From IMG/VR virus record IMGVR_UViG_3300045988_183727: a stretch of DNA of 64,000 nucleotides. One strand, 5' to 3'. Positions 1-59,937 of this stretch are shown in pieces (the first letter of the stretch is position 1; the number at the start of each line of letters is the position of its first letter). Source of the stretch: a virus. The position numbers and the translations under genes are program-made. The notes beneath the pieces are model-generated. The model had not been told where the DNA came from and did not search any database. It saw only the letters and a list, made by a program, of their open reading frames with translations.

Positions 1-3000
1 GAACCTATCAAGGCAGCACACGATTATATCTGGGACATGATTAACCAGCAGGCACAGATTCCAAGTTTCGCTGTTGGCAGACCTACTCAGACATATAACG
101 ATTTCGAGTTGGTATGGGACGGCACTTCTTGGTCGTTGACAAGAACCGACACCAACAGAGTCCTGAGAAATTTTGACGACTTCGAGTTCAGCCTGCCCGG
201 TGTGAGCACCTTCCAGAGTGGAAACAATCTTACGATTACAGCCACGCCGGAAGCCGCTAAGAGTATGTTGAACGGCATTGTATCGTACCCCACCGAGGGC
301 AATGTGATTGACCCTGATAGCGTCAACGCTTACCTTCTCGTCGCGGGTGGCAGCAAGCAGGATTGCGTTGCTCTTAACGGCACCCCCGACCCTGTTACTG
401 CCTACGTCCGCGCCAAGGTCACAAAGACTACCGGCGATTTGAACATTGCCAAGACCTCCGAGGATGGCAAGGTAGGCGGCGTGAGTTTCACGGTCACGGG
501 CCCCAACGGTTACAGCAAGACTGTGACCACTGGTGCAAACGGTAAGATTGCCATTACCGATTTGCAGCCCGGTACTTATACCGTAACGGAGAATACACCC
601 GACAATTACATCCCGACGCAGCCCCAGTCCGTAAACATCGCAATCGGCGATTTTAAGACGGTGAACTTCAGCAACGTGCTGAAGAAGGGCGCCGTAAAGG
701 TGACTAAGACCTCAGAGGATGGTCAGATTGCTGGTCACACCTTCCGGCTGTCCGGCACTTCCGCAGCAGGTACGGCTGTCAATATGACGGCTGTTACGGA
801 TGCCAACGGCGTGGCTACCTTCAATAATGTTCCTGTGGGCAACAACTATAAGCTGGAGGAAATCAACACCGCAGCGAAGTATGTTGTTCCTGCGGTGCAG
901 GCTGGCGTGGTGGTTGAGTACAACACCAGCACCCCCGCTCAGTTTGAGAACAAGCTGGCTCGCGGCAATCTGAAAATCACGAAGACCTCCGAGGATGGCT
1001 TCGTGGCAGGCATGACCTTCCGGCTGACCGGTACGTCTATCTCCGGTGCAGCAGTCAATGAAACTGCTTCTACCGACGAGAACGGTGTCGTCATGTTCAG
1101 AGAAATCCTTATCGGTAATAACTATACCGTACAGGAAATCAACACCGCCGAGCGGTACGTTGTTCCCGCTGTCCAGAGCAATGTGACCGTCACGCTCAAC
1201 AACACCACCAGCTTGAACTTCCATAATAAGCTGGCTCGCGGCGCCGTTGAGGTTAAGAAGACCTCCGAGGACGGCAAGGTCGCTGGTATCACGTTCCGCC
1301 TGTCCGGTACTGCTATCAACGGCGAGACGGTGGATATGACCGCCGTGACCAATGACGCCGGAGTTGCCACCTTCAACAACGTTCTGATTGGCAATAACTA
1401 CAGCGTTGAGGAAGTGAACACGGCTGCCAAGTATATCGTTCCCGCTGTGACAAACGGCGTGAAGGTTACTCTGGATAACACCACCCCCGTGAATGTCTAC
1501 AACAAGCTCAAGCGCGGCGACCTGCGCGTTACCAAGACCTCTGAGGACGGCATGGTCGAGGGCATCACCTTCCGGCTGCATGGCACTGCCATCTCCGGCG
1601 ATGCTGTTGACCTGACTGCTACCACCAACGCTGACGGTATTGCCATCTTCAAGGATGTCCTGATTGGCGACAACTACACGCTGGAGGAAGTCGATACGGC
1701 GGTGAAGTATGTTATTCCTGCCGTGCAGACAGGTCTCGTTGTGGAGTTCCAGAAAGTTACCGACACCGCTGTGACTAACGTACTGAAGAAGTGGAAGGTC
1801 ACTGTGGAAAAGACGGACGCCGAGACTGGCAACATCCCTCGCGGCGATGGTGTCTTTGAGGGTGCTGTGTACGGTCTCTATAAGGGTGACGAACTGGTGA
1901 AGGAGTACGTTATCGGCAGTGATGGCAAGTTCACCACTGACGAGTACATCTGCGGCTATGATTACACCATCCGTGAAATCAAGGCGCCCACTGGCTATCA
2001 GATTGATGAGGGCGTGTATCGCGTTGGCGCCGAGCCGGAGAACTACCGTATCGAACACAACGTTGCTCCCCAGATTACCTCTGTCGAGGTCATCAATCGC
2101 GGCACATTCGCCATCACCAAGTTCATCTCCGACGGAACCTCCGGTCCCGCTAAGTTCGAGGGCGGTGCAGAGTTCAAGTATTGGCTGCAGTCCGCCGGCT
2201 CTTACGAGAACGCTAAGGATGACGAGCGCGGTATCCTGACGACCAACGACTTGGGTTACAGCGGCAAGTCTATCGAGCTGCCCTACGGCACCTATGTGGT
2301 GCATCAGACCAAGGCCGGCGATAAGGGTGCGGGGCTCGCGCCTGAGTTCACCGTTCTGGTTGGCGAGGTTGACCACGACCATCACGACTTGGCTGTCAAC
2401 AACGGACCTATTACCGCGTATCTGCGCGTTGTGAAGGTCGATGAGCTTGACGGCGAGGTCATTCCTTGGGGTGGTGCAAAGTTCCAGATTTACGACCCTG
2501 ACGGGAACAAGGTGTCCCAGAAGGTCACTTACCCCACGGTAACTTATATTGATACATTCGAGACAAATGATGAGGGTTATTTTGTGACCCCGCTGGTTCT
2601 GCCTTACGGCGAGAACTATCATCTGGTCGAAATCGTACCCCCGAAGGGTTATGAGCTGATGGATACCCCGATTACCTTCAGCGTTACGCCCGATACCATT
2701 TCTTTGGATGCCGAGACCGGTCTGGTGACTGTGAATATCATCGCCGAGGACGAGGCGGTGACTCCCAAGGTCAAGACTACTGCAACCGACAAGGAAGGCA
2801 ACAAGGAAATCGTTCCGGCCACCACCGTCACTATCGTCGATAAGGTGGAATGCACCGACGTTATCCCCAACAAGACCTATACGGTCGAGGGATATCTGGT
2901 GGTTAAGTCCACCGGCGAGCCTCTGCTGGACGCCGAGGGTAATCGCATTACCGCCTCTAAGACCTTCAAGGCTGAGGCCGACTTCACTGGCTTTGTGGAG

Positions 3001-4800
3001 CTGGAGTTCACCTTTGATGCGTCTCTGCTGGGTGGCGAGTCCATCGTTGTTTTCGAGGACCTGAAGCGCGGAAACCGTGTCGTTGCTACCCATGCTGACA
3101 TCAACGATGTTGACCAGACCGTTGTAATCCTGAACCCCAAGATTGGCACCACGGCCAAGAACGCTGTTGGCGGTAAGGAGTTCATGCCTCTGGCTGATGT
3201 GATTCTGGTGGATACCATCTCCTACGAGAATATGCCCGTGGGTAAGGAGTTCATCGCTATCGGTACGCTGATGGATAAGGCCACCGGCAAGCCTGTTACC
3301 GATGCCAACGGCGACCCCGTCACCTCTTACAAGGTGTTCACTCCCGAAGCTGCCACTGGTACGGTGGATGTGAAGTTCGTCTTTGACGCTTCTAAGCTGG
3401 CCGGCAAGTCTCTGGTGGTATTCGAGCGTGTGTATCTGGGTAACGAGATTGTTCCCGGCGACTCCAATAAACCCGTGTTTGTGAGTCACGAGGATATCAA
3501 CGATGAGGGGCAGACCGTCACCATCGGCGTTCCCGAAATCGGTACAAAGGCCGTGAACAACGCCACCAACGGCAAGACCCTCGACCCCGAATCCCGCGCT
3601 GAAATCAAGGATACCGTGTCCTATAAGGGCCTGATTGCTGGAGAGAAGTACACTGTCTCCGGTAAGCTGATGAACAAGGCCACCAACGAGCCCCTGAAGG
3701 ATAAGGACGGAAAGGAAATTACCTCCTCCGTTACCTTCACCGCTGAGGCGTCCGATGGCACCGTTGACGTGTTCTTCGTGCTCGATGCATCTCTGCTGCG
3801 TGGCCAGTCTATCGTTGTATTCGAGTCCCTGCAGTACAAGGACATTGAAATCGCAGTTCATGCCGACATCAACGATGTTGACCAGACTGTGACTGTCAAC
3901 AGCCCTGAAATCAAGACCACCGCTAAGAACGCTGCTGATGGCAAGAAGGAATTCTGGGCCTACAGCAAGGTCGAGCTGGTCGATACCGTGTCCTATAAGG
4001 GCCTGATTGCCGGCAATAAGTACACCGTAATCGGTAAGCTGATGGACAAGGCGACAGGTGAGCCTGTTCTGGGCCGCAACAACAAGGAAATCACCGCCAC
4101 TACCGAGTTCGAGGCCAAATCCTCTGACGGTACTGTGGATGTGAGTTTCGTGTTCGATGCATCCATTCTGGGCGGTAAGACGCTGGTCGTGTTCGAGACC
4201 CTGACCCGCAATGGCACTACGGTCGCAACTCACGCCGACATCAACGATGTTGACCAGACTGTGACCATCAAGCGCATCCCGACCTATTCCGGTCCGAGCA
4301 TTTCCACCACCGCTACCTTCGATGGCAAGGAGAAGAAGAACTCCGTTGCTGGTAAGAACGTAAAAATCGTGGACACCGTCAACTATACCGGCCTGACTGT
4401 GGGCAAGACCTACGTACTGGTTGGTACGCTGATGGATAAGGATTCCGGTGTTGCCCTCAAGGACAATAAGGGTAATCTGGTAACTGCTACTACGACCTTT
4501 ACGCCCAAGTCCTCCAACGGTGCTGTGAATGTTACGTTCAAGTTCGACGCATCCAAGCTGAAGGACCATGCGCTCGTGGTGTTCGAGACTCTGTATGAGG
4601 GTCGTGCTGAGGCGGGTAATGTCATTGCTACCCACAACGACCTGATGGACGGTGCTCAGACGGTGTATTTCCGCGACAGTGTCCAGACTGGCGATGAGGG
4701 CATCGGCCTGTGGGCCATGCTGGGTACGTTCAGTGCCATTGCTTGCTGCGGCACTGCGGTGTTCATGTTCCGCCGCAAGAAGGAGTATGGCGCCGAGTAA
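1..4800 (+). CDS. Giant cell-wall-anchored adhesin (5' end outside the window): SpaA/Cna-B-like Ig repeats, then VaFE / Thr-Gln ester-bond repeats, then a C-terminal SVQTG sorting signal
   Basis: Frame 1 is open from base 1. The track M at 37 has no signal peptide, so the N-terminus lies upstream. Repeats carry TKTSEDGxxAGxTFRLxGT...NYxxEExNTAxKYVxPAV, and later repeats end in SLVVFExL...ATHADINDVDQTV (HxDxxDxxQ). The tail is SVQTGDEG, a hydrophobic helix, then RRKKE. Confidence 0.9.
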   Translation, partial: EPIKAAHDYIWDMINQQAQIPSFAVGRPTQTYNDFELVWDGTSWSLTRTDTNRVLRNFDDFEFSLPGVSTFQSGNNLTITATPEAAKSMLNGIVSYPTEGNVIDPDSVNAYLLVAGGSKQDCVALNGTPDPVTAYVRAKVTKTTGDLNIAKTSEDGKVGGVSFTVTGPNGYSKTVTTGANGKIAITDLQPGTYTVTENTPDNYIPTQPQSVNIAIGDFKTVNFSNVLKKGAVKVTKTSEDGQIAGHTFRLSGTSAAGTAVNMTAVTDANGVATFNNVPVGNNYKLEEINTAAKYVVPAVQAGVVVEYNTSTPAQFENKLARGNLKITKTSEDGFVAGMTFRLTGTSISGAAVNETASTDENGVVMFREILIGNNYTVQEINTAERYVVPAVQSNVTVTLNNTTSLNFHNKLARGAVEVKKTSEDGKVAGITFRLSGTAINGETVDMTAVTNDAGVATFNNVLIGNNYSVEEVNTAAKYIVPAVTNGVKVTLDNTTPVNVYNKLKRGDLRVTKTSEDGMVEGITFRLHGTAISGDAVDLTATTNADGIAIFKDVLIGDNYTLEEVDTAVKYVIPAVQTGLVVEFQKVTDTAVTNVLKKWKVTVEKTDAETGNIPRGDGVFEGAVYGLYKGDELVKEYVIGSDGKFTTDEYICGYDYTIREIKAPTGYQIDEGVYRVGAEPENYRIEHNVAPQITSVEVINRGTFAITKFISDGTSGPAKFEGGAEFKYWLQSAGSYENAKDDERGILTTNDLGYSGKSIELPYGTYVVHQTKAGDKGAGLAPEFTVLVGEVDHDHHDLAVNNGPITAYLRVVKVDELDGEVIPWGGAKFQIYDPDGNKVSQKVTYPTVTYIDTFETNDEGYFVTPLVLPYGENYHLVEIVPPKGYELMDTPITFSVTPDTISLDAETGLVTVNIIAEDEAVTPKVKTTATDKEGNKEIVPATTVTIVDKVECTDVIPNKTYTVEGYLVVKSTGEPLLDAEGNRITASKTFKAEADFTGFVELEFTFDASLLGGESIVVFEDLKRGNRVVATHADINDVDQTVVILNPKIGTTAKNAVGGKEFMPLADVILVDTISYENMPVGKEFIAIGTLMDKATGKPVTDANGDPVTSYKVFTPEAATGTVDVKFVFDASKLAGKSLVVFERVYLGNEIVPGDSNKPVFVSHEDINDEGQTVTIGVPEIGTKAVNNATNGKTLDPESRAEIKDTVSYKGLIAGEKYTVSGKLMNKATNEPLKDKDGKEITSSVTFTAEASDGTVDVFFVLDASLLRGQSIVVFESLQYKDIEIAVHADINDVDQTVTVNSPEIKTTAKNAADGKKEFWAYSKVELVDTVSYKGLIAGNKYTVIGKLMDKATGEPVLGRNNKEITATTEFEAKSSDGTVDVSFVFDASILGGKTLVVFETLTRNGTTVATHADINDVDQTVTIKRIPTYSGPSISTTATFDGKEKKNSVAGKNVKIVDTVNYTGLTVGKTYVLVGTLMDKDSGVALKDNKGNLVTATTTFTPKSSNGAVNVTFKFDASKLKDHALVVFETLYEGRAEAGNVIATHNDLMDGAQTVYFRDSVQTGDEGIGLWAMLGTFSAIACCGTAVFMFRRKKEYGAE
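454..1732 (+). repeat. In-frame tandem Ig-like (Cna-B/SpaA-type) domain repeats within the adhesin gene
   Basis: About five ~93-aa units, each opening with (T/K)KTSEDG and containing TFRLxGT, GNNY and NTAxKY(V/I)VPAV. Borders are approximate. Confidence 0.7.
2659..4672 (+). repeat. In-frame tandem VaFE / ester-bond (Cpe0147-like) domain repeats within the adhesin gene
   Basis: About seven ~100-aa units, each with TTA(K/T)..., VDTVSYxGL, GxLMDKATGEP, VxFxFDAS, LVVFE and HxDINDxxQTV. Borders are approximate. Confidence 0.7.
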
Positions 4801-7766: not shown

Positions 7767-8333
7767 CTATGCGTCCAGCTCGTACACGATAAGCCCAATA
7801 CTATCAATAAACTGATAGTGGTTCGCATATTCACGCTGGATGAATTCCTCTCCCTTTGCCCTGCCCCACTTATTCTCATCACAGATATCCGTAATCATGT
7901 CGGACATGGATTCGTAGATACTGGCGATAGGGGTAACAATGACATTTTCGCGCCTAAACAACCACATCCGCAGCACCTCGCGGGGAGAGAAAGCCCGACA
8001 GAGACTCTGCTCTTCGGGGACAAGGTCGTGCGGCGCACGGGTGCCGTAAATTTCGTGCTGCTTCACAAGAGTCTTGAGGCGAAGCTCTGCCATGTCGAGA
8101 AGCCGCTTCGCTGTTTCGGGGTCGTCCCCTCCAAACTCCATAATGGATATCATCACATCCATAAGGGAAAGAGGGTCGTTGACTGCCATTTCTACAGACT
8201 TCCGGACAGCGTCGCTTGTGCTGCCTGTGAATTGGCAAACGTCATCAATGAGGTCGTCATTATCTTTCTTGTTCTGTTTTTCTTCGTTGCTGGTTCCGTG
8301 TTCATAGATTCTACTGTTCTGTTTTCGCTGCAT
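7767..8333 (-). CDS. Hypothetical protein (188 aa)
   Basis: ATG with RBS gaaggagg. No family recognised. Confidence 0.7.
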   Translation of the reverse strand: MQRKQNSRIYEHGTSNEEKQNKKDNDDLIDDVCQFTGSTSDAVRKSVEMAVNDPLSLMDVMISIMEFGGDDPETAKRLLDMAELRLKTLVKQHEIYGTRAPHDLVPEEQSLCRAFSPREVLRMWLFRRENVIVTPIASIYESMSDMITDICDENKWGRAKGEEFIQREYANHYQFIDSIGLIVYELDA

Positions 8334-19629: not shown

Positions 19630-19717
19630 GGAGAGGTGGCCGAGTGGTTGAAGGCACCGGTCTTGAAAACCGGCGATGCGAAAGCATCCGTGGGTTTGAA
19701 TCCCACTCTCTCCGCCA
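19630..19717 (+). tRNA. tRNA-Ser (anticodon TGA), CCA encoded
   Basis: Acceptor GGAGAGG/TCTCTCC, D-arm GTGGCCGAGTGG, anticodon loop CTTGAAA, long variable arm, T-loop GGTTTGAATCC. Confidence 0.9.
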
Positions 19718-48484: not shown

Positions 48485-48560
48485 GCTGGTGTAGCTCAGT
48501 AGGCAGAGCGGCGCACTCGTAACGCGCAGGTCGTGGGTTCGACCCCCACCGTCAGCTCCA
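48485..48560 (+). tRNA. tRNA-Thr (anticodon CGT), CCA encoded
   Basis: GCTGGTG...TAGCTCAGTAGG...anticodon loop CTCGTAA...GGTTCGACCCC...CGTCAGC-T-CCA. Confidence 0.85.
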
Positions 48561-48652
48561 TTCCATACTCATTCTCCTTCAAGTGAAGCCCCCGTGTAAC
48601 AGGTCTTTTGAAAAGTGCTTTCAGCCTCGTTGTGCGGGGGCTTCACGACTAT

Positions 48653-48728
48653 GCTGATGTAGCTCAGTTGGCAGAGCGGCGGATTTGTAAACCGCAGGTC
48701 GGGGGTTCAAGGCCCTCCATCAGCTCCA
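48653..48728 (+). tRNA. tRNA-Thr (anticodon TGT), CCA encoded
   Basis: GCTGATG TAGCTCAGTTGG...anticodon loop TTTGTAA...GGTTCAAGGCC...CATCAGC-T-CCA. Confidence 0.85.
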
Positions 48729-48763
48729 TTAAAACCATGTGCTTTTGTGGTGTTTTTATATGC

Positions 48764-48840
48764 GCGGATGTCGTCTAATTTGGTGAGACACCAGCCTTCC
48801 AAGCTGGTCATTGCGGGTTCGAGTCCCGTCGTCCGCTCCA
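48764..48840 (+). tRNA. tRNA-Gly (anticodon TCC), CCA encoded
   Basis: GCGGATG...anticodon stem CCAGC/GCTGG with loop CTTCCAA...GGTTCGAGTCC...CGTCCGC-T-CCA. Confidence 0.85.
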
Positions 48841-48867: not shown

Positions 48868-49229
48868 CTTTATCTGCTTATTTGTCCTGTGTTTTTCGGA
48901 CAACATCGGTGAGCGCAAAAGTCGCCTGAAGCGTGAGAAGCGAGCTGCCTGCATCTGTTTTGCGGGCGGTGGCGTGATAAGGGTGAAACTCTGCGCTTTC
49001 AGTAGCCGTAAGCAGGTGAGCAAAAGTCTCTGCGAACGCCTGCATGGTTCGCGGGACAAGGGAAGCCGGAAAAATAAGTAAACGCGGGCCGAGCGCAGAG
49101 GTTGTTGGCGTATTCCAGACGTGGGTGCTGCCTTTTATGCTGTGCTTGTTTGCGTGGGGTCCGGTGTTCTCGCAGTCTGGATGGTTGCTGCGAGAGGTGC
49201 CAAAACTTATTGCGAAAGGACGGAGTTCT

Positions 49230-50288
49230 ATGCCAACTACATTTCAAGCGTTTAAGTATCGCATTTACCCGACTGATGAGCAGGTCGAAATCATTGAAAA
49301 GACTTTCAAGTGCTGCCGGTTTGTGTGGAACCATTTCCTTGAGCGAACCTCCAAAATCTATGACCGTCGGCAGGAAAAGATGACGACCTTCGACTGTATG
49401 AAGGTTCTCACGGAGATGCGGGAGCGCTGGCCTTGGCTTGCGGACTGCGGCTGTACGGCAGAGAGATATGCCATCATTGATTTGTTTGAGGCGCGAAAGG
49501 CGTTCTTCCGCCGCATTAAAGCGGGGGAGAAGCCCGGTTATCCCAAATTTAAGGGCGCGTCCCATCCGACACAGAGTTTTACGACCGCTGGTACTATCTA
49601 TGTGACGGACGATTACATTCAGGTTCCGTTTGGAGGACAGTATCAGAAAATCAACAAGCTCAGGCGAGGGACGGGGCGCCCCATCGAAGGGTCTCCCCGC
49701 GAGGTCACTATTTCTCGGTCTGCTACCGGAAAATACTGGGCATCTGTCTGCTGTAAAGTAGAGCGAGACACGCTGCCTATTGTGGACGGCGAGGTGGGAA
49801 TCAGTCTCGGCCTGAAGGAGTTGGCTATTGACAGCAACGGCGTTCACTATGAGAACCCGAAGCATCTGAGCAAGTCTGCAAAGCGGTTGGCACGTGAGCA
49901 GCGGCGTCTATCCCGCAAGAAGAAGGGCTCTGTCAACTACGAGAAGCAGCGGCGCAAGGTAGCCGGCGTCCATGAGCATATTGCCAATCAGCGCAATGAC
50001 TACCGGCATAAAATCAGCCGTGAACTTGTCAACGCAAACCAGCTTATTGCCGTTGAGAAGGTGGCCGTTAAGCCCTTAGTTGAGGGCAATGAGCAGGCTA
50101 AAAGCATCCTCGATGCCGGCTGGTCTGAACTTACCGGTATGATAAAGTATAAGGCGGACTGGGCTGGACGCACTCTGGTGGACGTAGATACCGCCACCGT
50201 AGCACCGGAAGCCAAGCATGATGAGGCACTGGCACAGGTCGTGCTGTCCGAAGGTCAGCGCATGGCTTCCGAGCAGAAGCCTGCCTAA
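49230..50288 (+). CDS. TnpB-like protein, predicted nuclease-dead and C-terminally truncated (TldR-like); could alternatively be a decaying tnpB
   Basis: N-terminal FKYRIYPTDEQ (OrfB/TnpB). RuvC-I reads VGISLGLK where the family consensus has GIDLG (D to S). RuvC-II has IAVEKV. The ORF stops after KADWAGRTLVDVD, before the zinc finger and RuvC-III. ATG at 49230 follows aaaggacgg. Confidence 0.8.
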   Translation: MPTTFQAFKYRIYPTDEQVEIIEKTFKCCRFVWNHFLERTSKIYDRRQEKMTTFDCMKVLTEMRERWPWLADCGCTAERYAIIDLFEARKAFFRRIKAGEKPGYPKFKGASHPTQSFTTAGTIYVTDDYIQVPFGGQYQKINKLRRGTGRPIEGSPREVTISRSATGKYWASVCCKVERDTLPIVDGEVGISLGLKELAIDSNGVHYENPKHLSKSAKRLAREQRRLSRKKKGSVNYEKQRRKVAGVHEHIANQRNDYRHKISRELVNANQLIAVEKVAVKPLVEGNEQAKSILDAGWSELTGMIKYKADWAGRTLVDVDTATVAPEAKHDEALAQVVLSEGQRMASEQKPA

Positions 50289-51416: not shown

Positions 51417-51730
51417 GCAACACCAATACACCTGAAAAGCCCGTCGTCGTATTCATCAGTAATGACCACGATACCGTCATTGGTGTGATGGTCATTAAGA
51501 ACGACGATGAAAACCTGCAGAACAATCTCGAAATCATTGAGAAAAACTGGGTTGCTGCTCGTAACGAGTTGCTCCAGCGGGCTCGTGAGGACGATAGCAT
51601 TGAAGCAGACGAGGACGAGCTTCACATCGCATTCATCGCACACGAGTTGGGGATGTTCGACGAGCCCTATGAGACTATCGACATCTCCGGCGTTTACTCC
51701 GTCTCCAATGGGAATGTGGACCGCATCTAA
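51413..51730 (+). CDS. Hypothetical acidic protein (105 aa)
   Basis: ATG coupled to the upstream small ORF. Confidence 0.6.
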   Translation: MSNTNTPEKPVVVFISNDHDTVIGVMVIKNDDENLQNNLEIIEKNWVAARNELLQRAREDDSIEADEDELHIAFIAHELGMFDEPYETIDISGVYSVSNGNVDRI

Positions 51731-52221: not shown

Positions 52222-52743
52222 ATGGCCTCAAAAAAGATATATAGTTCCCCTGAACTCTATGAGGACAAGTTGGTGCGCGTAATGGCGCGGCTTGGTATCG
52301 AAGAAGGCGACTACAACTACGACTGGAGTCGTCAGGAGTGTTGGGTTGAGTTCAGGTACAAGGGTGAGCTTTACCGCTTCTCCCATAGCGTGAAGAACGC
52401 CCAAGAGCACGGCATCTCCCTGCAGTACGGCTCCGATGCCTTCGCACAGGTCGTGCTTTCTTTGGAAGACCTCGCCCGTATGGTCGAACGTGGCATCTAC
52501 GACCTGTCCACATGGGTGGCCGGAATGAGAGCTCTGCCGGAGCGCTCAAAGTCCTTGGATGCCTGTTTCATTGCTCTCGGCTTTGTAGAGCCGCCCACAT
52601 CCAAAGAAGAAATCACACTCCACTACCGCCGGTTGGCGAAGGTGTATCACCCTGATGCCGGTGGCGATAGCTCCTCATTTGATGCGCTGTCTAACAACTA
52701 TGCGAAATGTATGGAGATTTTCGAGGAGGTTGCCAACAAATAA
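52222..52743 (+). CDS. J-domain (DnaJ-like) protein
   Basis: ATG at 52222 follows aaaggagg. The C-terminal LHYRRLAKVYHPDAGGD carries the HPD motif. Confidence 0.75.
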   Translation: MASKKIYSSPELYEDKLVRVMARLGIEEGDYNYDWSRQECWVEFRYKGELYRFSHSVKNAQEHGISLQYGSDAFAQVVLSLEDLARMVERGIYDLSTWVAGMRALPERSKSLDACFIALGFVEPPTSKEEITLHYRRLAKVYHPDAGGDSSSFDALSNNYAKCMEIFEEVANK

Positions 52744-53252
52744 TGTATATGTCTCAGAAAGAGTTCAACGCTATGATGAAGAAAAACCCCCGCCTCCGTG
52801 TTCACGGTGCAAATAACAATACCCGCGAACATCGCTCCAAAGCGAATAAGGCGGCAAAATATAGAAATGTAAAGGTCTACGAGTATGCCGATGGGCTGGC
52901 TTTTTTCGGTAAGCCCCGCAATAATGGTGAAATCCCTATCGCTGTCTTTGACAGCAAGAAGGAGTACCACCGCTGGAAAGAGCTTCAGATTTTGGAGCGC
53001 GGCGGACATATCCACGACCTTCGCCGGCAGGTGCCTTTGACCATCATTACCGAGTTCGAGTATCGTGGTCAGAAGGTCTCCGGTATTACTTACAAAGCCG
53101 ACGCCGTCTATGTGCGCGACGGCAAGTGTGTGGTAGAGGACGTGAAGCCCTTCGATACCACAACGCAGAAGTATCGAACTACAAAGGATTTCAACCTCAA
53201 GTGGAAGCTGCTCAAGGCTGAATATCCTACTTGGTCTTTTGAAATCTATTAA
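52743..53252 (+). CDS. DUF1064-family protein (phage-type, nuclease-fold)
   Basis: KYRNVKVYEYADGLAFFGKPRN..., FDSKKEYHRWKELQILERGGHI..., ITYKADAVYVRDGKCVVEDVKP... follows the DUF1064 pattern. The start overlaps the upstream stop (TAATG). Confidence 0.65.
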   Translation: MYMSQKEFNAMMKKNPRLRVHGANNNTREHRSKANKAAKYRNVKVYEYADGLAFFGKPRNNGEIPIAVFDSKKEYHRWKELQILERGGHIHDLRRQVPLTIITEFEYRGQKVSGITYKADAVYVRDGKCVVEDVKPFDTTTQKYRTTKDFNLKWKLLKAEYPTWSFEIY

Positions 53253-53258
53253 AAACGA

Positions 53259-53390
53259 GTACGGATGGTATAACCGGAATTAACGCCTGTGGAGATGCAT
53301 GGTCGTCGTGGAAGCAGGAATACTCTGTTGGCTGGTAATCATGTGAGAGATGATACCGGCACCTTTGGGGAACTGAATATGCCTGTGTCG
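53259..53390 (+). ncRNA. Omega-RNA-like scaffold, copy E
   Basis: Central hairpin GCTGG-TAA-TCAT-GTGAGAG-ATGA-TA-CCGGC, whose U-G pair is only allowed on the + strand RNA. Linker TGAATATGCCTGTGTCGG. Confidence 0.7.
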
Positions 53391-53533
53391 GGTATATAGA
53401 ACCCTGAAACGACAGGGTTGTGTATCACAGAATAACTGCGGCAGCGGCATATATGGCTCTGAAACAACAGGGTTGTATACCGCATAAAAAAGGCTATGGT
53501 GTGTAATACCCTGAAATAACAAGGTTGTGTACC
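53391..53533 (+). repeat. Hairpin-repeat mini-array E (3 repeats)
   Basis: Repeats at 53391-53426, 53447-53481 and 53499-53533. Spacers are 20 and 17 nt. Confidence 0.7.
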
Positions 53534-53718
53534 CCATAACATATTGTTTCTGAAAGTGGTGGACGGCAAGTGGAAAATCTGAGCAACATCCGGTGGCGAG
53601 TTCATCTGTAAGACCTGCTACGGTGGAGGGAGCGGTATTTTCCTTGCCTACTTCGACCTCGTGCAGTGAGTGATTGCAGGGCTTTCGACGGTTCCGCAAA
53701 TTTGTTCGTTCCAAGAAC

Positions 53719-53796
53719 TTGACAAAATATCGAATTATAGTAGTATAGAATTATAAGGAAGGACAGTCTAACACAGACTGTCCTTCCGCTTTTTTA
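53719..53796 (+). promoter_or_regulatory. Promoter immediately followed by an intrinsic terminator (cassette 5, + strand, short leader)
   Basis: TTGACA (53719-24), 16 nt, TAGTAT (53741-46), then GGAAGGACAGTCT-AACAC-AGACTGTCCTTCC GCTTTTTT (53757-53796), 25 nt before the TTG start at 53821. Confidence 0.7.
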
Positions 53797-53820: not shown

Positions 53821-54615
53821 TTGGGAAACACAAGCAAAAAGCACGTAAAATGGGGGATTTTCAAGACTGCACTTTTTACGTTCCTGTTCGTCGCAGTATC
53901 CGTTTTCTACTTTCTCTCCACCAACGTGACACTCGCACAGGCCGAAGAACGCTCGAACCACGAATCACCTCCTGCAGCAGAGGTTGCCGCCCAGATGGAC
54001 GACACCAAGCTGTCAGAAGAAGCGCAGCAAGATGTTTTGGTGCTGAAGGAAGGAATCCTCGACCCGCTTTCCGACATCACGGAAGCAGAGAACTCTGAAG
54101 ATGACCCCGACGCCGTGGAGGAAGTACAGGAAGTCGTTCCGACAGTCTGTTCCTACTGCGGCTCTGAGAACCATAGTTCCTCAATCTGTGCAAAGAGGTC
54201 TATCGCCAATGGTGCCTATGGGCGCTGGGTGATTCCGTCTGTTGGCTGTAATGTAGCGGCCTACTCGTGTAACTGGGATGCAGACCAATCCTATGTTCAG
54301 GAAATTACTGACAGTTCCGACAGTGCAGCTTTCTTGACTTGCGGCGGCGTTGGTGTTCTTGCGGACCACAATAACCAAGGTTTCTGTGGACTTTCCAATA
54401 TTTCTGTTGGCGCAAAAGCCTACATGGATTTTGGTGATGGTGCAACTTACTACGAGTGCTATCAGGTTGAATATGGACACAATACCGGCGAAAAGATGCT
54501 CGATGGAAATGGAAACATAATGAGCTACAGCAACTATTCTTCCGGCACCGTGATTTGCTACACCTGCCTTGACCACTGGACCAACATTTACATCACTTAC
54601 TGGACGCCGGTATAA
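53821..54615 (+). CDS. Sortase-like membrane-anchored protein, paralogue 1
   Basis: N-terminal TM, acidic linker, CSYCGSENHSSSIC. Sortase-type strands are WVIPSVGCNVAAY, LADHNNQGF and VICYTC. No obvious catalytic Arg. TTG start follows aaagggga. Confidence 0.55.
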   Translation: MGNTSKKHVKWGIFKTALFTFLFVAVSVFYFLSTNVTLAQAEERSNHESPPAAEVAAQMDDTKLSEEAQQDVLVLKEGILDPLSDITEAENSEDDPDAVEEVQEVVPTVCSYCGSENHSSSICAKRSIANGAYGRWVIPSVGCNVAAYSCNWDADQSYVQEITDSSDSAAFLTCGGVGVLADHNNQGFCGLSNISVGAKAYMDFGDGATYYECYQVEYGHNTGEKMLDGNGNIMSYSNYSSGTVICYTCLDHWTNIYITYWTPV

Positions 54616-54654
54616 GCGCCAGACACCCACTCTACTCTAAGAAAGGACAAAACC

Positions 54655-55455
54655 GTGAAAACGAAATTCAAAATCCCTCGGTGGGCACTCTTCACCGTTA
54701 TCATTCTGTCCTTTATCGGTGGTCTCTTTGCCATCTCCATGCTGCCTGCTTTCGCATCACGTGAAAGCTCTCCGCCTTTGGCAGTAGCAGAAGCCGCGCA
54801 GAACGAGGAAAAGGACGCAAATTCTGATGCTCAGACTCCCGAAGCAAACGAGACATCCGATGAGCATGGAAGCACTGAAACTCCCGTAGAGGACGAGCCT
54901 CAGGCAGACGATGCTGTCGTCGTTGAAGTGACTCCCTCCGAAGAGCCTGTTCAGGAAACTCCAACCACCTGTTCCTACTGCGGCAGCGTAGAACACACCA
55001 AAGACTACTGTGCCGTCCGTGCCGTGGACAATGGCGCCATTGGACGGCTCCGGATTCCCTCTGTCGGTGTTGACGTGGCTGTTTACGACGTCACTTGGTA
55101 CTCTCTGCAGCACACCACCGAAGGCGATAACTACGCGCAGGCCGTTACAGATGCATGGGACAGCGCCGCACAAATCGTCTATCTCGGCCAGACCGTTATT
55201 GGCGACCATAATAATCAGGGCTTCTCCGCCATCAACAACTGTGCCGAGGGCACTTACTCCTACATCGACATAGGCGACTCTGTCCTGACCTATGTTTGTA
55301 CCGGCATCCAGCATGGTCGCAACCCCGGTGGCTATCTTACCGGAGCCGATGGCGATAGCATCTATACCTCTTACTTCAATCCCAATGGTCTGACGCTGTA
55401 TACCTGTCTCGACCACAACTTCAATGTTGCCCTTGTGACATTCCAGCCTGCTTAG
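54655..55455 (+). CDS. Sortase-like membrane-anchored protein, paralogue 2
   Basis: GTG start follows aagaaagga. Contains CSYCGSVEHTKDYC, LRIPSVGVDVAVY, IGDHNNQGF and LTLYTC. Confidence 0.55.
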   Translation: MKTKFKIPRWALFTVIILSFIGGLFAISMLPAFASRESSPPLAVAEAAQNEEKDANSDAQTPEANETSDEHGSTETPVEDEPQADDAVVVEVTPSEEPVQETPTTCSYCGSVEHTKDYCAVRAVDNGAIGRLRIPSVGVDVAVYDVTWYSLQHTTEGDNYAQAVTDAWDSAAQIVYLGQTVIGDHNNQGFSAINNCAEGTYSYIDIGDSVLTYVCTGIQHGRNPGGYLTGADGDSIYTSYFNPNGLTLYTCLDHNFNVALVTFQPA

Positions 55456-55457
55456 GC

Positions 55458-55489
55458 TATTTAAGATTTGATGTGGGAAACCCACAAAA
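55458..55489. repeat. Left terminal inverted repeat (contains the GTGGG-AAA-CCCAC hairpin)
   Basis: Perfect 32/32 match to the reverse complement of 57153-57184. Confidence 0.9.
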
Positions 55490-55659
55490 AGTCTTATAGC
55501 CACAGCCACACCGACGTGTGTAAGTCTTCTCTCAGGTAGAGGCGACGGATGCACCTGCGGGTTTTCCCAGCTCGCAGCTCTGCCAAGCATACGCCGAGGT
55601 AAGGGAGACATTACCGCCTCCTCCGGAGGCGAGACACTACTGAAAGGAGATGAGCGCAC
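55490..55659 (+). ncRNA. Candidate IscB omega-RNA (HEARO-like) scaffold
   Basis: Non-coding, GC-rich and hairpin-rich (CACAC-CGAC-GTGTG; CGCCTCC-TCC-GGAGGCG) stretch directly upstream of iscB, which is the canonical omega-RNA position. The exact ends are unknown. Confidence 0.5.
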
Positions 55660-57144
55660 ATGACGATGGTCTATGTGCAAAATAAAGACGGTAAACCTTT
55701 GATGCCGACAACTCGCTATTGTTATGTGCGCCTTCTCCTGAAGGAGAAGAAAGCACGAGTTGTTTGCACTACCCCGTTTACCATCCAGTTGAACTATGAT
55801 ACCCCAGACATCACCCAAGACTTGATTCTTGGCATCGACCCCGGCAGAACGAACATTGGTGTCGCTGTCGTCAAGGAGGACGGCCAATGCGTGTTCTCCG
55901 CACATCTGGAGACGCGCAATAAGGACGTACCTCTTCTGATGCAGAAGCGTGCCGGTTTCCGTAAGCAGCATCGCACGTTGGACCGGCGCCGCAAGCGCCA
56001 GCGTCGTGCGAAGGCTGCTGGGACCACCGTTGCCGGGGGTTCTGTCGAGAGATTGCTCCCCGGCTATGAGAAGCCCATTGTGTGCCACCATATCCGCAAT
56101 AAGGAGGCGCGGTTCAATAACCGTAGCCGCCCTGTGGGATGGTTGACACCTACAGCAAATCACCTGCTGCAAACCCACATCAACCTGATTGCAAAGGTTG
56201 CGAAGTTCTTACCTATCACGAAAGTGGTGGTGGAGCTGAACCGCTTTGCATTCATGGCGATGGATAATCCCAATATCCGTCGGTGGGAGTACCAGCAGGG
56301 GCCGTTGTACGGACTGGGTTCCGTGGAGGATGCGGTGTACGCACAGCAGGATGGACATTGCCTGTTCTGCAAGAAGCCCATTGACCATTACCATCATGTT
56401 GTTCCACGCCACAAGGGTGGAAGTGAGACGCTGGCTAACCGGTGTGGGCTTTGTGCGAAGCATCACGACCTCGTCCATAAGGACAAGGCGTGGGCGGATA
56501 AGCTGGTCACACGCAAGGAAGGTATGAATAAAAAGTACCACGCCTTGAGTGTTCTGAACCAGATTATCCCGCATCTCATGGAGTATCTCGGAGGCGAGAC
56601 TCTCTACGATGTCTATGCCACGGATGGTAAGTCCACCAAGGGCTTCCGCGTTGCCAAGAACGTGCCGAAAGAACATTACACGGATGCCTACTGTATCGCC
56701 TGTTCCATTTTGGATGCGAATACGAAGGTCTCCACACCTGCCGAACCCTTTAAGCTGAAGCAGTTCCGTCGGCACGACCGGCAATCCTGCATCCGCCAAA
56801 TGGTTGACCGGAAGTACCTTCTGGATGGCAAGGTCGTTGCAGCAAACCGGCATAAGGCCATTGAGCAAAAGTCCGATAGCCTGCAGGAGTTCCGTGAGGC
56901 TTACGGCGATGCTGCGGTATCGCAGCTCACCGTGAAACCTCACTCGCCCCAGTACAAGGACATGACTCGTATCATGCCGGGGGCGGTGATGGATTTCGGT
57001 GGCGCTGTCGGGATTCTTCAGGGGTCGGAAGGCTTCCATAACGGCAAGCCGGACTACTATAAATCTACGAAAGGAGAACGGGTTTTAACGAGGAGATGTG
57101 CGCTTCTCGCACAGAACGCAGGCATGGTTTTCATTCCCGCCTGA
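55660..57144 (+). CDS. iscB: IscB RNA-guided nuclease (PLMP, RuvC, bridge helix and HNH)
   Basis: DGKPLMPT (PLMP), [14 protein letters not shown] (RuvC-I), Arg-rich [25 protein letters not shown]...[38 protein letters not shown] (RuvC-III). 494 aa. Confidence 0.9.
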
Positions 57145-57152
57145 AAACAAAG

Positions 57153-57184
57153 TTTTGTGGGTTTCCCACATCAAATCTTAAATA
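57153..57184. repeat. Right terminal inverted repeat (contains the GTGGG-TTT-CCCAC hairpin)
   Basis: Perfect reverse complement of 55458-55489. Confidence 0.9.
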
Positions 57185-57199
57185 TCCGGTGCAGCTTTA

Positions 57200-57973
57200 A
57201 TGAAAACAAAGAAAATTTCCCGCCGCGCCGTTACGCTGGCTGCCTTTTTGCTGGTAAGTGCATCATCTTTACATATGGCTTGTGCAGAGGCTTCGGTGCC
57301 TTTCGATTACTTTACTGATGACCTCTCTGTGTCCACTGACGCCGTTGCGAAGGAAGATAAATACCGGCCTCCTGAGTGGTTCACAAAAGAAAATGTTGTA
57401 AGTGAAGTGGACTCAGACACGCCTCCGGGGGAGACTCCTACCCCTGCGGGCGAACCTTCTGTGGCGACCCCCGTGCCTGAGCCCGCACCGGAAACCGCAG
57501 CAGCCTGCAGCTATTGCGGCAGCGCAGGGCACTCGCAGAATAGGTGTGCCGTTTACGCTGTCGAACAGCGAGGTGCCGTTGGGCGTTGGTCTATCCCTTC
57601 TATTGGAATAGATGTCGCTTGCTTCACCTATGTGCTTGGAAGCGATTCCTTCGAGTACGGACAGGCAATTTGTGACGCTGCCGATAGTGCCGGCTACAGT
57701 GCGTATGGGAGCCAGTATCTCATTGCAGACCACAACTATCAGGGCTTTTCTGCCATAGCCAACTGCGCGGTCGGTGCGGTGGGATATATGGATTACGGAA
57801 ACAGTCGAACAGAATATGTTTGTACTGGGGTGGAGTATGGGCACAATGAAGGCACGGAACTGACTGATAATGACGGAAACGATGTTGCGTACAACAACAG
57901 TGGAGGAATTACCCTTTACACCTGTTACAACGGCTGGCAAAACGTCGTCATAGCGTATTTTACTCCGGTTTAA
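57200..57973 (+). CDS. Sortase-like membrane-anchored protein, paralogue 3
   Basis: CSYCGSAGHSQNRC, WSIPSIGIDVACF, IADHNYQGF, ITLYTC. There is no convincing RBS; the IscB element abuts its 5' end. Confidence 0.5.
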   Translation: MKTKKISRRAVTLAAFLLVSASSLHMACAEASVPFDYFTDDLSVSTDAVAKEDKYRPPEWFTKENVVSEVDSDTPPGETPTPAGEPSVATPVPEPAPETAAACSYCGSAGHSQNRCAVYAVEQRGAVGRWSIPSIGIDVACFTYVLGSDSFEYGQAICDAADSAGYSAYGSQYLIADHNYQGFSAIANCAVGAVGYMDYGNSRTEYVCTGVEYGHNEGTELTDNDGNDVAYNNSGGITLYTCYNGWQNVVIAYFTPV

Positions 57974-58066
57974 CCGCTGGCCGCTGATGCTGAAGGATAT
58001 TTGAGGTTGGTTGTGCGGCGGCGCATCCAATCTTACATATCCCAGTTCTGAAAGGAAATGATAAAA

Positions 58067-58255
58067 ATGGCACGTCCCGTTGAAACCATAGACCCCAAGT
58101 TAGAAACGAGCAGATATATAACTGTTGATGGGGAGTATGAAGAACGAGAATCCTTTGCCGGAATGGTTTACAGCGACTCTTTACTGCAATCATTCTTCAG
58201 GAGGACTTGGAAGCGGCTTGAAGACGCCGCAAATGCCCATCAGGATACTCCCTGA
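58067..58255 (+). CDS. Small hypothetical protein upstream of the recombinase (possible directionality factor, by position only)
   Basis: ATG at 58067, 9 nt after gaaagga. The track start at 58058 is too close to the RBS. Confidence 0.45.
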   Translation: MARPVETIDPKLETSRYITVDGEYEERESFAGMVYSDSLLQSFFRRTWKRLEDAANAHQDTP

Positions 58256-58282
58256 TGGGCATTTTTCCCAAGAACTTACGAC

Positions 58283-58311
58283 TTGTCATTTTTTTATGTG
58301 GGTTGTATAAT
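58283..58311 (+). promoter_or_regulatory. Sigma-A-type promoter of the recombinase gene
   Basis: TTGTCA (58283-88), 17 nt, TGTATAAT (58304-11). Confidence 0.6.
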
Positions 58312-58359
58312 ATAGGTGAACGTCTTTGCAGAGGGCGTAACTTATAGGAAAGGGGACTT

Positions 58360-59937
58360 ATGCCTACAGAAAGAAAGAAGAAAACAACAAAAGAAGAAAA
58401 CGCAAAAAATAACTCAACAAAAAACACAATAAAAAAACCAAGAAACTCAACAAGTAACACGAAAAGCAAGAAAGAAAGCAAGTCTCTTTTGGGGTTAAAG
58501 GACCTGATGGAAGATACGTCTCCAGAAAAAGTCGTCGGCTGTTATGTTCGTGTATCTACCGATGCACAGGCGGAGCAGGGATATTCTATACCTGACCAAA
58601 CAGCCAAATTGCAGGCCTTTTGTACCGTAAAAGGCTGGGAGAACGCGAAATTCTACACGGACCCCGGATTCAGCGGCAGCAACTTAAATCGACCGGCAAT
58701 GCAGGAAATGATATCCGATGCGATGGAAGGGAAGCTGAAGGCGGTTGTCGTCTTCAAGCTGGACCGTCTCTCCAGAAGTCAGAAGGATACTCTTTATTTA
58801 ATTGAGGATGTGTTTCTTCCGAACGAAGTGGATTTTGTAAGCATTTCCGAGGCCCTTGACACTACCACTCCATATGGACGAGCGATGATAGGTATTTTGA
58901 GCGTCTTCGCCCAGTTGGAACGCGAGAATATCTATATGCGAACCCGTATTGGAATGATGGGTCGTGTAAGCGCGGGGTATTGGCGTGGCGGCGGAAACGT
59001 TCCGTTTGGCTATGATTATGACAAGACAAGCAAATCCCTTATCCCAAATGCTGACGCGCCAAAAGTGCCACAGGCTTACGACCTCTACATCAAGGGCTAT
59101 AGTTGCCAGAAAATTGCGGATATGCTCGGACTAAGTAGCGAACAGCTCGTGAGGAATATTCTCACCAAGCGCACATATTGCGGCTACATCAACTACAAAG
59201 GCAAAGACTACAAGGGTTTCCACGAGCCTTTGATTGATGAAGAGCGGTTCATGCTCGTGGCTGCAGAAATGGAACGCCGTGGGAAGGAAAACCTCGCAGT
59301 CTGCGGCAACAATAAATATTATCTTCTTACCGGGCTTGTTTTCTGCGGAGATTGTGGCGCCAGAATGCGGTACATGAAGTGGGGGAAGTATATCCGTATC
59401 GTCTGCTACTCGCACACGTGTAAAAAGAACATGGTTAAGGACCCCGATTGTCCAAACAAGGGCGTTCGCGCAGATGAACTTGAGAAGGTTGTTATCTCAA
59501 AACTTTTTGACATTGGTACTGACATTTCTCTCGACGATTTTGACGACACCCACGTGCCTGCAAGTGCAGCAGAAATCCTGACGAACCGGATAGATGAGCT
59601 GAAGGAGTCTCTCAGGCGCCTATATGGGCTCTATGCCGACATCGGAGACCCCATGGTGTACGAGCGCATTGAGGATGTGCGAGGACAGCTCCACGTATTG
59701 CAGAGACAGCTTGCAAGCGAGGAAACGCAGAAACTCAAGGAAGAGCACATCAACTACGTCCGTGAGAAAATTCAGACTATTGGAGACCTCTGGCCCCATC
59801 TTACTCCTATGGAGCGCCAAACTCTTGTTCGTGATTGTGTTGAGAAGGTTATTTTGCATCACAACGGACGTGTTGAGGTTTACTACACTTTCCATACTGA
59901 GAAAGATAGTAAAATTCTCAAAAGGAAAGGCGCATAA
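58360..59937 (+). CDS. Large serine recombinase with a Lys-rich N-terminal extension
   Basis: Resolvase catalytic CYVRVSTDAQAEQGYSIPDQ, recombinase domain, zinc ribbon CGDCGARM...CYSHTC, and a coiled-coil C-terminus. An alternative start is at 58507. Confidence 0.9.
   Translation: MPTERKKKTTKEENAKNNSTKNTIKKPRNSTSNTKSKKESKSLLGLKDLMEDTSPEKVVGCYVRVSTDAQAEQGYSIPDQTAKLQAFCTVKGWENAKFYTDPGFSGSNLNRPAMQEMISDAMEGKLKAVVVFKLDRLSRSQKDTLYLIEDVFLPNEVDFVSISEALDTTTPYGRAMIGILSVFAQLERENIYMRTRIGMMGRVSAGYWRGGGNVPFGYDYDKTSKSLIPNADAPKVPQAYDLYIKGYSCQKIADMLGLSSEQLVRNILTKRTYCGYINYKGKDYKGFHEPLIDEERFMLVAAEMERRGKENLAVCGNNKYYLLTGLVFCGDCGARMRYMKWGKYIRIVCYSHTCKKNMVKDPDCPNKGVRADELEKVVISKLFDIGTDISLDDFDDTHVPASAAEILTNRIDELKESLRRLYGLYADIGDPMVYERIEDVRGQLHVLQRQLASEETQKLKEEHINYVREKIQTIGDLWPHLTPMERQTLVRDCVEKVILHHNGRVEVYYTFHTEKDSKILKRKGA

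Follow-up and report, generated by a model that had tools for sequence, protein, structure and literature searches.

What kind of mobile element carries an iscB gene between long, perfect inverted repeats? This question is raised by a 1.7-kb segment of the virus record IMGVR_UViG_3300045988_183727 (IMG/VR), of which a stretch of 64,000 nucleotides, hereafter 'the window', was analysed. The segment holds a gene for the OMEGA nuclease IscB and, upstream of it, a leader in the position of its guide RNA (omega-RNA). It is bounded by the 32-nt repeat TATTTAAGATTTGATGTGGGAAACCCACAAAA at 55458-55489 (+ strand) and by its exact reverse complement at 57153-57184 (- strand). An earlier note on this DNA had described these repeats and had suggested looking for others; both copies are exact, no further one was found in the window, and none at all would be expected from shuffled sequences. 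We also agree with that note that such ends are atypical of an IS200/IS605-type element: ISC/IscB elements have been described as having no terminal inverted repeats (TIRs), making no target duplications and being moved by Y1 transposases (Kapitonov et al. 2016), and a 2026 review presents IscB likewise, listing associations with TIRs and DDE transposases only for TnpB and Fanzor. Full-text literature searches, whose scope did not include Altae-Tran 2021 and its supplements, so that an earlier description is possible, found no account of IscB with TIRs, target-site duplications (TSDs) or inverted-repeat ends.

We conclude that the element belongs to an OgeuIscB-type family of non-autonomous elements with TIRs and TSDs, resident in human-gut phage-like genomes, and that this copy is intact and has moved recently. 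Taking mechanism into account, we put at roughly two in three the probability that it is a non-autonomous TIR/TSD OMEGA transposon, composed of an OgeuIscB-type iscB, an omega-RNA of ~206 nt and TIRs, which is moved in trans by a DDE-type transposase and whose IscB homes on empty alleles.

The limits of the element were established by comparison with its relatives, which were gathered by scanning IMG/VR for exact matches to 21 nt of the repeat and then by a protein-based scan. About 30 IMG/VR loci carry the same 1.7-kb unit (85 to 96% protein identity), and a metagenome scan added about 40 further loci from human-gut assemblies. In every locus GGCTATTTAAG marks the start of the likeness to the window and CTTAAATA(T/C)CC its end, and the flanks beyond them differ; related phage-like contigs from the human gut hold the element at more than 25 different sites. 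The whole element therefore occupies 1733 bp on the + strand (55455-57187, GGCTATTT...AAATATCC), the exact limits of the likeness to about 40 other copies. A repeat-bounded element, as the earlier note had proposed, is thereby upheld, with its ends moved outwards from 55458 and 57184 to 55455 and 57187. Between these ends the inverted repeat grows to 35 nt with one mismatch (34/35): the left TIR covers 55455-55489 (+) and is perfect over 55458-55489, and the right TIR covers 57153-57187 (-). The window corresponds to positions 1-64000 of a 118-kb contig in ENA that derives from the human gut. The 494-aa protein encoded in it recurs, identical, at two further flanks, where the element differs by 0 to 4 mismatches in 1.7 kb. 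Since an identical protein lies at no fewer than three different flanks, the element has moved recently.

Filled and empty versions of the same site could be compared in five cases. Each time, the filled site has on both sides of the element a 9-mer of which the empty one holds a single copy. Three of these targets are present, unoccupied, on the + strand of the window itself: GCTTCCGAG (GCYTCCGAG) at 50265-50273, in the 3' end of a tnpB gene, which is filled with a 9-bp duplication in L019, L020, L025, L031 and L206; CCGTCGTCG at 51441-51449, filled in L018 and L021; and ATGTATATG at 52743-52751, filled in L026. The fourth pair involves TGCTCAGAA and the fifth GATTTCAGG; in the latter, 7 further nt separate the right end from the repeat. 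These seven bases, GATTTCC, seen at L002:5469-5510 (the same as the right junction of L008), are a partial copy of the duplicated target and are possibly the footprint of an earlier event. A census of junctions, comprising 47 junction-pair records (both-strand duplicates of some insertions included), gave seven independent sites with a perfect 9/9 direct repeat, three with 8/9 and three with 7/9; the chance of a perfect 9-mer duplication is about 4e-6 per site. The left flanks end variously (GAG, AAG, TGA, ATG, TCG, TTG, TAA and others), with a purine bias only. Duplications of fixed length at varied targets are the signature of a staggered double-strand cut.

A different origin had been proposed in the earlier note, in which a palindromic site between genes was the target of an IscB element of the IS200/IS605 type, or serves to mobilise it, the repeats being the two halves of a pre-existing hairpin. 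The outer halves of the repeats, if joined, would make a perfect hairpin, and related contigs do contain solo hairpins of 47 to 55 nt that resemble the left end. However, the empty site between paralogues 2 and 3 of the flanking gene series, the very comparison that the note had recommended, was found in a related contig (L026:7022-7426). It reads ...CCTGCTTA-AAGGG-GGTGTAGC... (more widely, ...CCAGCCTGCTTA-AAGGG-GGTGTAGCTTTAATG...) and has no palindrome, which refutes insertion into such a site. The same ends, moreover, occur at more than 25 unrelated places, the left flanks share no specific 4-5-nt target, and duplications of 8 to 9 bp are incompatible with the peel-and-paste reaction of Y1 transposases (Kapitonov 2016; 2026 review). 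As for the solo hairpins (L003:454-500, L069, L070, L169:1689-1743, L263:~8090-8143), they consist of the first 47 to 55 bases of the element itself, without duplications and with nothing of the rest of it; they look like deletion remnants or the products of aborted copying, rather than miniature transposons or targets. The palindromic-site explanation thus keeps hardly any credibility. The notion that both ends are IS605-like hairpins was also considered and rejected: only the left end of the window element folds into a significant hairpin, the right end giving no significant extended hairpin (z = -1.1 to -1.8).

Could the unit instead be an invertible segment, flipped by a recombinase acting on the perfect repeats? 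The repeats themselves, and a serine recombinase gene 1.2 kb downstream, would suit this second suggestion of the note. The recombinase, however, is a 525-aa protein of the large serine type, with Recombinase and zinc-ribbon domains, and not a Hin-type invertase; no small invertase was found, and all four assemblies of the site (the window, L029, L167 and L168) share one orientation. At other sites the repeats are seen as transposon ends flanked by target duplications, and their perfection is peculiar to one copy: the longest perfect inverted run measures 9 to 21 nt in 40 of 41 distinct full copies, and reaches 32 nt in the window sequence alone. We consider inversion extremely improbable. What makes the repeat perfect over 32 nt is a 5-nt patch, TTTCC, at 57162-57166 (+), where most copies have AAAA. 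This patch mirrors the left end, and L029, which is the same insertion at the same site with ~95% identity, has a right end of the common imperfect type (...GTGGGAAAACACATCG...). The perfect 32-nt repeat of the window is secondary; we infer that the patch arose by short-patch conversion between the two ends, or by replacement from a sister copy with the variant (L001/L170).

The gene carried by the element was, as first described, an intact iscB. It lies at 55660-57144 (+), and its 494-aa product matches Pfam RRXRR (E = 2e-49) and aligns over its full length with OgeuIscB (PDB 7xht, 7utn; E = 1e-196, ~62% identity). Catalytic-type residues D60, E192, H246, H339 and D342 are in place, in columns that are invariant in an alignment of ten relatives. 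With an N-terminal PLMP/RRXRR region, a split RuvC with inserted HNH and these residues, the protein is an IscB, a member of the OMEGA RNA-guided nucleases. It resembles OgeuIscB from end to end in domain order and catalytic residues, and both come from human gut metagenomes. It departs from it at R462, a residue contacting the target-adjacent motif (TAM), which is F in the window IscB, so that the TAM may differ from that of OgeuIscB.

The leader could then be set against the omega-RNA of OgeuIscB, in which the guide is followed by a 206-nt scaffold whose first part, the 'guide adaptor hairpin', runs from G1:A43 to U14:A30, the guide standing immediately 5' of G1 (Kato et al. 2022, PMC9640706). 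This published structure was used in place of the Rfam HEARO model. Rfam scans of 54000-58500 at E <= 1 and of the whole window at gathering thresholds gave no HEARO or omega-RNA match; between them they returned four tRNAs and a sub-threshold ctRNA only. The leader folds well (z = -4.8). When the published pairs were mapped onto L236, every listed canonical and non-canonical pair was reproduced, G1 being the first G of the TIR. Across an alignment (A2) of 22 leaders, the window's included, the OgeuIscB structure is kept in 89% of cells, compared to 26 to 42% with slid partners; compensatory changes on both sides are seen in 28 pairs, covariation scores 0.47 where slid controls score ~0.09, and the four pseudoknot pairs are kept in all sequences. 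Judged by this conservation of pairing, the leader is a genuine OgeuIscB-type omega-RNA. The scaffold is assigned to 55455-55660 (+), about 206 nt, directly upstream of iscB and ending at its ribosome-binding site/start codon. It has a nexus stem, a central stem, a nexus pseudoknot hairpin whose loop, UUUUCCCAG, pairs with GGGA, and, last, a terminal hairpin. Stem-loop 3 is lacking, a difference from OgeuIscB that is shared with the omega-RNAs of several other subfamilies; in length and in its core layout the scaffold is like that of OgeuIscB. The note had been right to place an omega-RNA here; its extent of ~170 nt downstream of the left repeat has to be replaced by one of ~206 nt that includes the repeat. 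Likewise, its proposed fit to a model fails for the HEARO family of Rfam and succeeds, with strong covariation, for the structure derived from cryo-EM.

The scaffold begins at the first base of the element. Its guide-adaptor hairpin, or stem-loop 1, extends over 55455-55501 (+), corresponds to stem-loop 1 of OgeuIscB (G1:A43 to U14:A30), shows compensatory changes at its base and folds significantly even as DNA (z = -5.0). The left TIR is at the same time the 5' arm of this hairpin, so that guide and scaffold meet at the transposon end.

The same architecture was found beyond the immediate relatives. Relatives at 54 to 64% protein identity have other TIR sequences (GGCTCTTCCAACTT..., GGGTATTTGCGAAAATAGGTGG..., GGCTGTCCGA..., GGGTATTGAAG...), and in these sister subfamilies TIRs of 22 to 24 nt stand at the exact ends, with perfect 8-bp direct repeats at all seven clean sites. 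The native OgeuIscB locus is represented by L236 and L237, whose protein matches OgeuIscB at 100% identity over 491 residues. The TIR of this locus is perfect over 22 nt and its 8-bp repeat is AATCAAGT, so that the window element differs from it in TIR sequence and in the length of the duplication (9 bp versus 8 bp). TIRs of 21 to 35 nt were present in every subfamily examined; in ~1.6 Mb of related DNA, all inverted TIR pairs are 1.7 to 1.8 kb apart with iscB as sole cargo, and among the subfamilies the TIR sequence co-varies with stem-loop 1 of the omega-RNA. The architecture is more general than the earlier note supposed, and the explanations offered there are wrong. A wider proposal seems to us about evenly balanced between true and false: the entire clade of OgeuIscB, with the native locus of the genome-editing enzyme among its members, would be a previously unrecognised kind of OMEGA transposon, with TIRs and 8-9-bp duplications rather than peel-and-paste ends, in which one sequence is both transposon end and first guide-RNA hairpin, and which is moved by a further transposase or, at the extreme, by an IscB-dependent route.

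How would such an element move and persist? In the mechanism that we favour, a staggered-cutting DDE-type transposase would recognise the TIRs and move the element in trans. Transcripts reading in from the upstream gene would then carry 16 nt of left flank, the duplicated target included, as guide; IscB would cut alleles without the element where these 16 nt precede a purine-rich TAM, and recombination with filled genomes would copy the element into the cut allele. The homing and guide steps are modelled on OgeuIscB and on OMEGA homing. For OgeuIscB the TAM is NNRR, and a guide match of ~14 nt is needed for cleavage. In the window the guide is predicted at 55439-55454 (+, CATTCCAGCCTGCTTA), because the OgeuIscB guide directly precedes G1 and G1 aligns to 55455. 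The guide would come from the flank outside the element and the TAM would be found beside the target in the empty site. In the empty allele of L026 the 16-mer is followed by AAGG, which fits NNRR. The filled site would be safe, since there the guide match precedes GGCT, which is not NNRR, and the right-hand duplicate matches over 9 nt only. Overall, 17 of 20 sites have NNRR after the duplicated target, compared to ~25% at distant offsets. The paralogue cluster is preceded by a sigma-70-like promoter (53719-53746), and the interval from paralogue 2 to the omega-RNA contains none; this placement is compatible with read-through transcription of the omega-RNA, without proving it.

Several observations weigh against this mechanism. 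About half of the insertion sites, the window's included, have no duplication in the junction census. The window copy has neither a target duplication nor the 5 bp AAGGG of its empty site. We attribute the sites without duplication to recombination between copies. Hybrid flanks fit this (in L032 the left flank is that of L017 and the right flank that of L012, and in L184 the right flank of the window goes with a different left flank), without amounting to proof. The same facts could be taken to mean that transposition has ceased and that homologous recombination or homing among related phage genomes is the only means of spread, the flanking repeats being relics. This is unlikely in view of the near-identical copies (0 to 4 mismatches) at three unrelated flanks and the perfect 9-bp duplications at seven independent sites.

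The purine-rich patch is a real enrichment, yet an ambiguous one: its strength does not change between offsets -1, 0 and +1, and in many cases it falls on a ribosome-binding site, so that it may mark positions where insertion is tolerated rather than selection for a TAM. Homing and read-through transcription of the omega-RNA are steps deduced by analogy. Above all, exact-end TIRs and duplications of fixed length at varied targets were found, as expected of a TIR transposon, and an autonomous partner was not. Pfam searches of the large ORFs, together with the precomputed Pfam assignments of the called genes, detected no DDE or Y1 transposase in the window; Y1_Tnp was not found, in a scan that was less than exhaustive for small ORFs between 1 and 10.7 kb and between 33 and 45.6 kb. 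No transposase adjoins the relatives of the element, and scans of viral and genome contigs for TIRs, made with exact 17-22-mers only, revealed no autonomous partner with matching ends. The viral scan with the GGGTATTTGCG... TIR returned IscB elements or solo ends and nothing else, the 93 matches to a 17-nt TIR core in genome contigs were essentially all due to chance, and a search of a plasmid collection with the OgeuIscB-type left end gave chance matches only. An exact 22-nt match to the left terminus (GGCTATTTAAGATTTGATGTGG) was seen in Dysosmobacter segnis BX15 (NZ_JACOQI010000012.1; L117:7043-7064), in an intergenic position that has neither IscB nor a transposase in its vicinity; the match may be due to chance, or be a remnant and so give a hint of the host group. 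Finally, co-variation of the TIR with the omega-RNA hairpin across subfamilies is awkward for a host-encoded transposase acting in trans.

This last point, together with the failure to find a transposase near the element or paired with its TIRs, would be more easily accommodated by self-mobilisation, in which IscB and its omega-RNA, with host repair, make the staggered break or drive insertion, the TIRs being the omega-RNA hairpin in the form of DNA. That the duplicated bases form the TAM-proximal part of the future guide and are followed by a TAM-like patch would also suit this idea, as would the finding that only ~1.5% of iscB genes lie near tnpA (Meers et al., preprint). The main objection is that IscB cuts at a match to its guide and the guide is the old flank, yet new sites are unrelated. 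The HNH domain cuts 3 nt from the TAM, so that 3 nt would be expected between duplication and TAM; the purine patch peaks at offsets -1 to +1 rather than at +3. We know of no precedent for mobilisation of this kind, and we regard it as improbable, slightly more so than spread without transposition. Transposition in trans by a DDE-type enzyme remains the reading that we prefer.

A comparison with known systems helps to place the element. Like the ISC or IS200/IS605 IscB elements (Kapitonov 2016; the example of G. stearothermophilus, Meers 2023), it is short, carries IscB only, has the omega-RNA at the end that provides the guide and presumably has a role in homing. Those elements, however, have no TIRs, make no duplication, use specific 4-5-nt sites and depend on the Y1 transposase TnpA, whereas here there are TIRs (21 to 35 nt in the clade), duplications of 8 to 9 bp and varied targets with no fixed 4-5-nt sequence, and no Y1 TnpA was found. 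A closer parallel in architecture is provided by the DDE-associated TnpB elements of the IS630, ISL2 and IS1031 branches, in which an OMEGA nuclease lies within symmetrical inverted-repeat ends (documented in the 2023 TnpB survey, Altae-Tran 2023 PNAS) and solo nuclease copies have ends like those of transposase-bearing copies (Altae-Tran 2023 PNAS). The nuclease is TnpB and the partner transposase known in that case, compared to IscB and no partner found in ours. IS630 duplicates TA, and ISL2 and IS1031 duplicate 2 to 3 bp (ISfinder), with which 8 to 9 bp would not fit. The element also shares features with the non-autonomous elements, similar to miniature inverted-repeat transposable elements, of GG-ended insertion sequence families: TIRs beginning with GG, duplications of 8 to 9 bp, no transposase in cis and many copies. 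It differs from them in that its cargo is an RNA-guided nuclease with an RNA overlapping the TIR, and no family member with matching TIRs was found. Among the GG-ended families in the ISfinder tables, those with duplications of 8 to 9 bp include IS1, IS5/IS903, IS6, IS256, ISL3 and IS1595, and they serve as a lead only.

Some further features of the element and its surroundings were observed. In the window, 49044-50288 is a TnpB (OrfB_IS605) gene, and related contigs have the IscB element ~15 nt upstream of its stop codon; with the element inside tnpB, one OMEGA element is nested in another. A variant of the right end with an outward-facing AAAGGAGAAATACAATG was seen in L015, L016, L018, L021, L027, L035 and L037 (for example, L018:4460-4517). 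In L018, where the element lies within a gene, this outward start fuses in frame to the broken ORF (MKNTSNLKSPVVVF... replacing MSNTNTPEKPVVVF...) and appears to restore expression of the downstream part of the gene. A frameshifted IscB copy (ORFs of 175 and 334 aa) occupies one site in at least 24 contigs (L268-L271, up to 333 kb); its conservation in so many contigs shows that decayed copies persist in large phage-like genomes.

The genes around the window element (53821-54615, 54655-55455 and 57200-57973) are tandem paralogues, as had been described. The loss of a recognisable ribosome-binding site in front of the third was likewise confirmed: the empty allele reads TTAAAGGGGGTGTAGCTTTAATG and the filled one ATATCCGGTGCAGCTTTAATG, and as AAGGG was lost at the insertion, the ribosome-binding site of paralogue 3 was removed. 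All three paralogues have signal-peptide-like N-termini, weak sub-threshold matches to the Sortase domain (E ~4e-3) and a zinc-knuckle-like CX2CX4HX4C motif (CSYCGSxxHxxxxC). Upstream of them, a segment of ~430 nt (53254-53690) contains three 45-nt direct repeats (53391-53435, 53446-53490 and 53498-53542; spacing 52 to 55 nt, core CCCTGAAAyrACAGGGTTGTGTA). L003 (454-500), L041, L065 and L072 are without this segment and have a solo 47-nt left-end hairpin in its place. Also encoded in the window are an adhesin of 1587 aa, in which TQ ester-bond and SpaA domains were recognised, four tRNA genes and the large serine recombinase, the spans listed for these being 37-4800, 19630-19714, 48485-48837 and 58360-59937. 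The replicon is phage-like, with IMG/VR relatives of 40 to 330 kb, and could be another type of mobile element; the GenBank phage collection contained nothing matching the element or 25 kb of its context.

Our results point to another kind of transposon end in the best-studied IscB lineage. Such an end would account for the missing TnpA and point to a transposase partner yet to be discovered, and the element would be a natural pairing of an RNA-guided nuclease with a transposon of the cut-and-paste type. The use of omega-RNA stem-loop 1 as a transposon end bears on the reason for which that hairpin is conserved. With more than 25 filled and empty sites in co-circulating gut phage-like genomes, three of them empty in the window, the family offers a tractable case for the study of RNA-guided homing.

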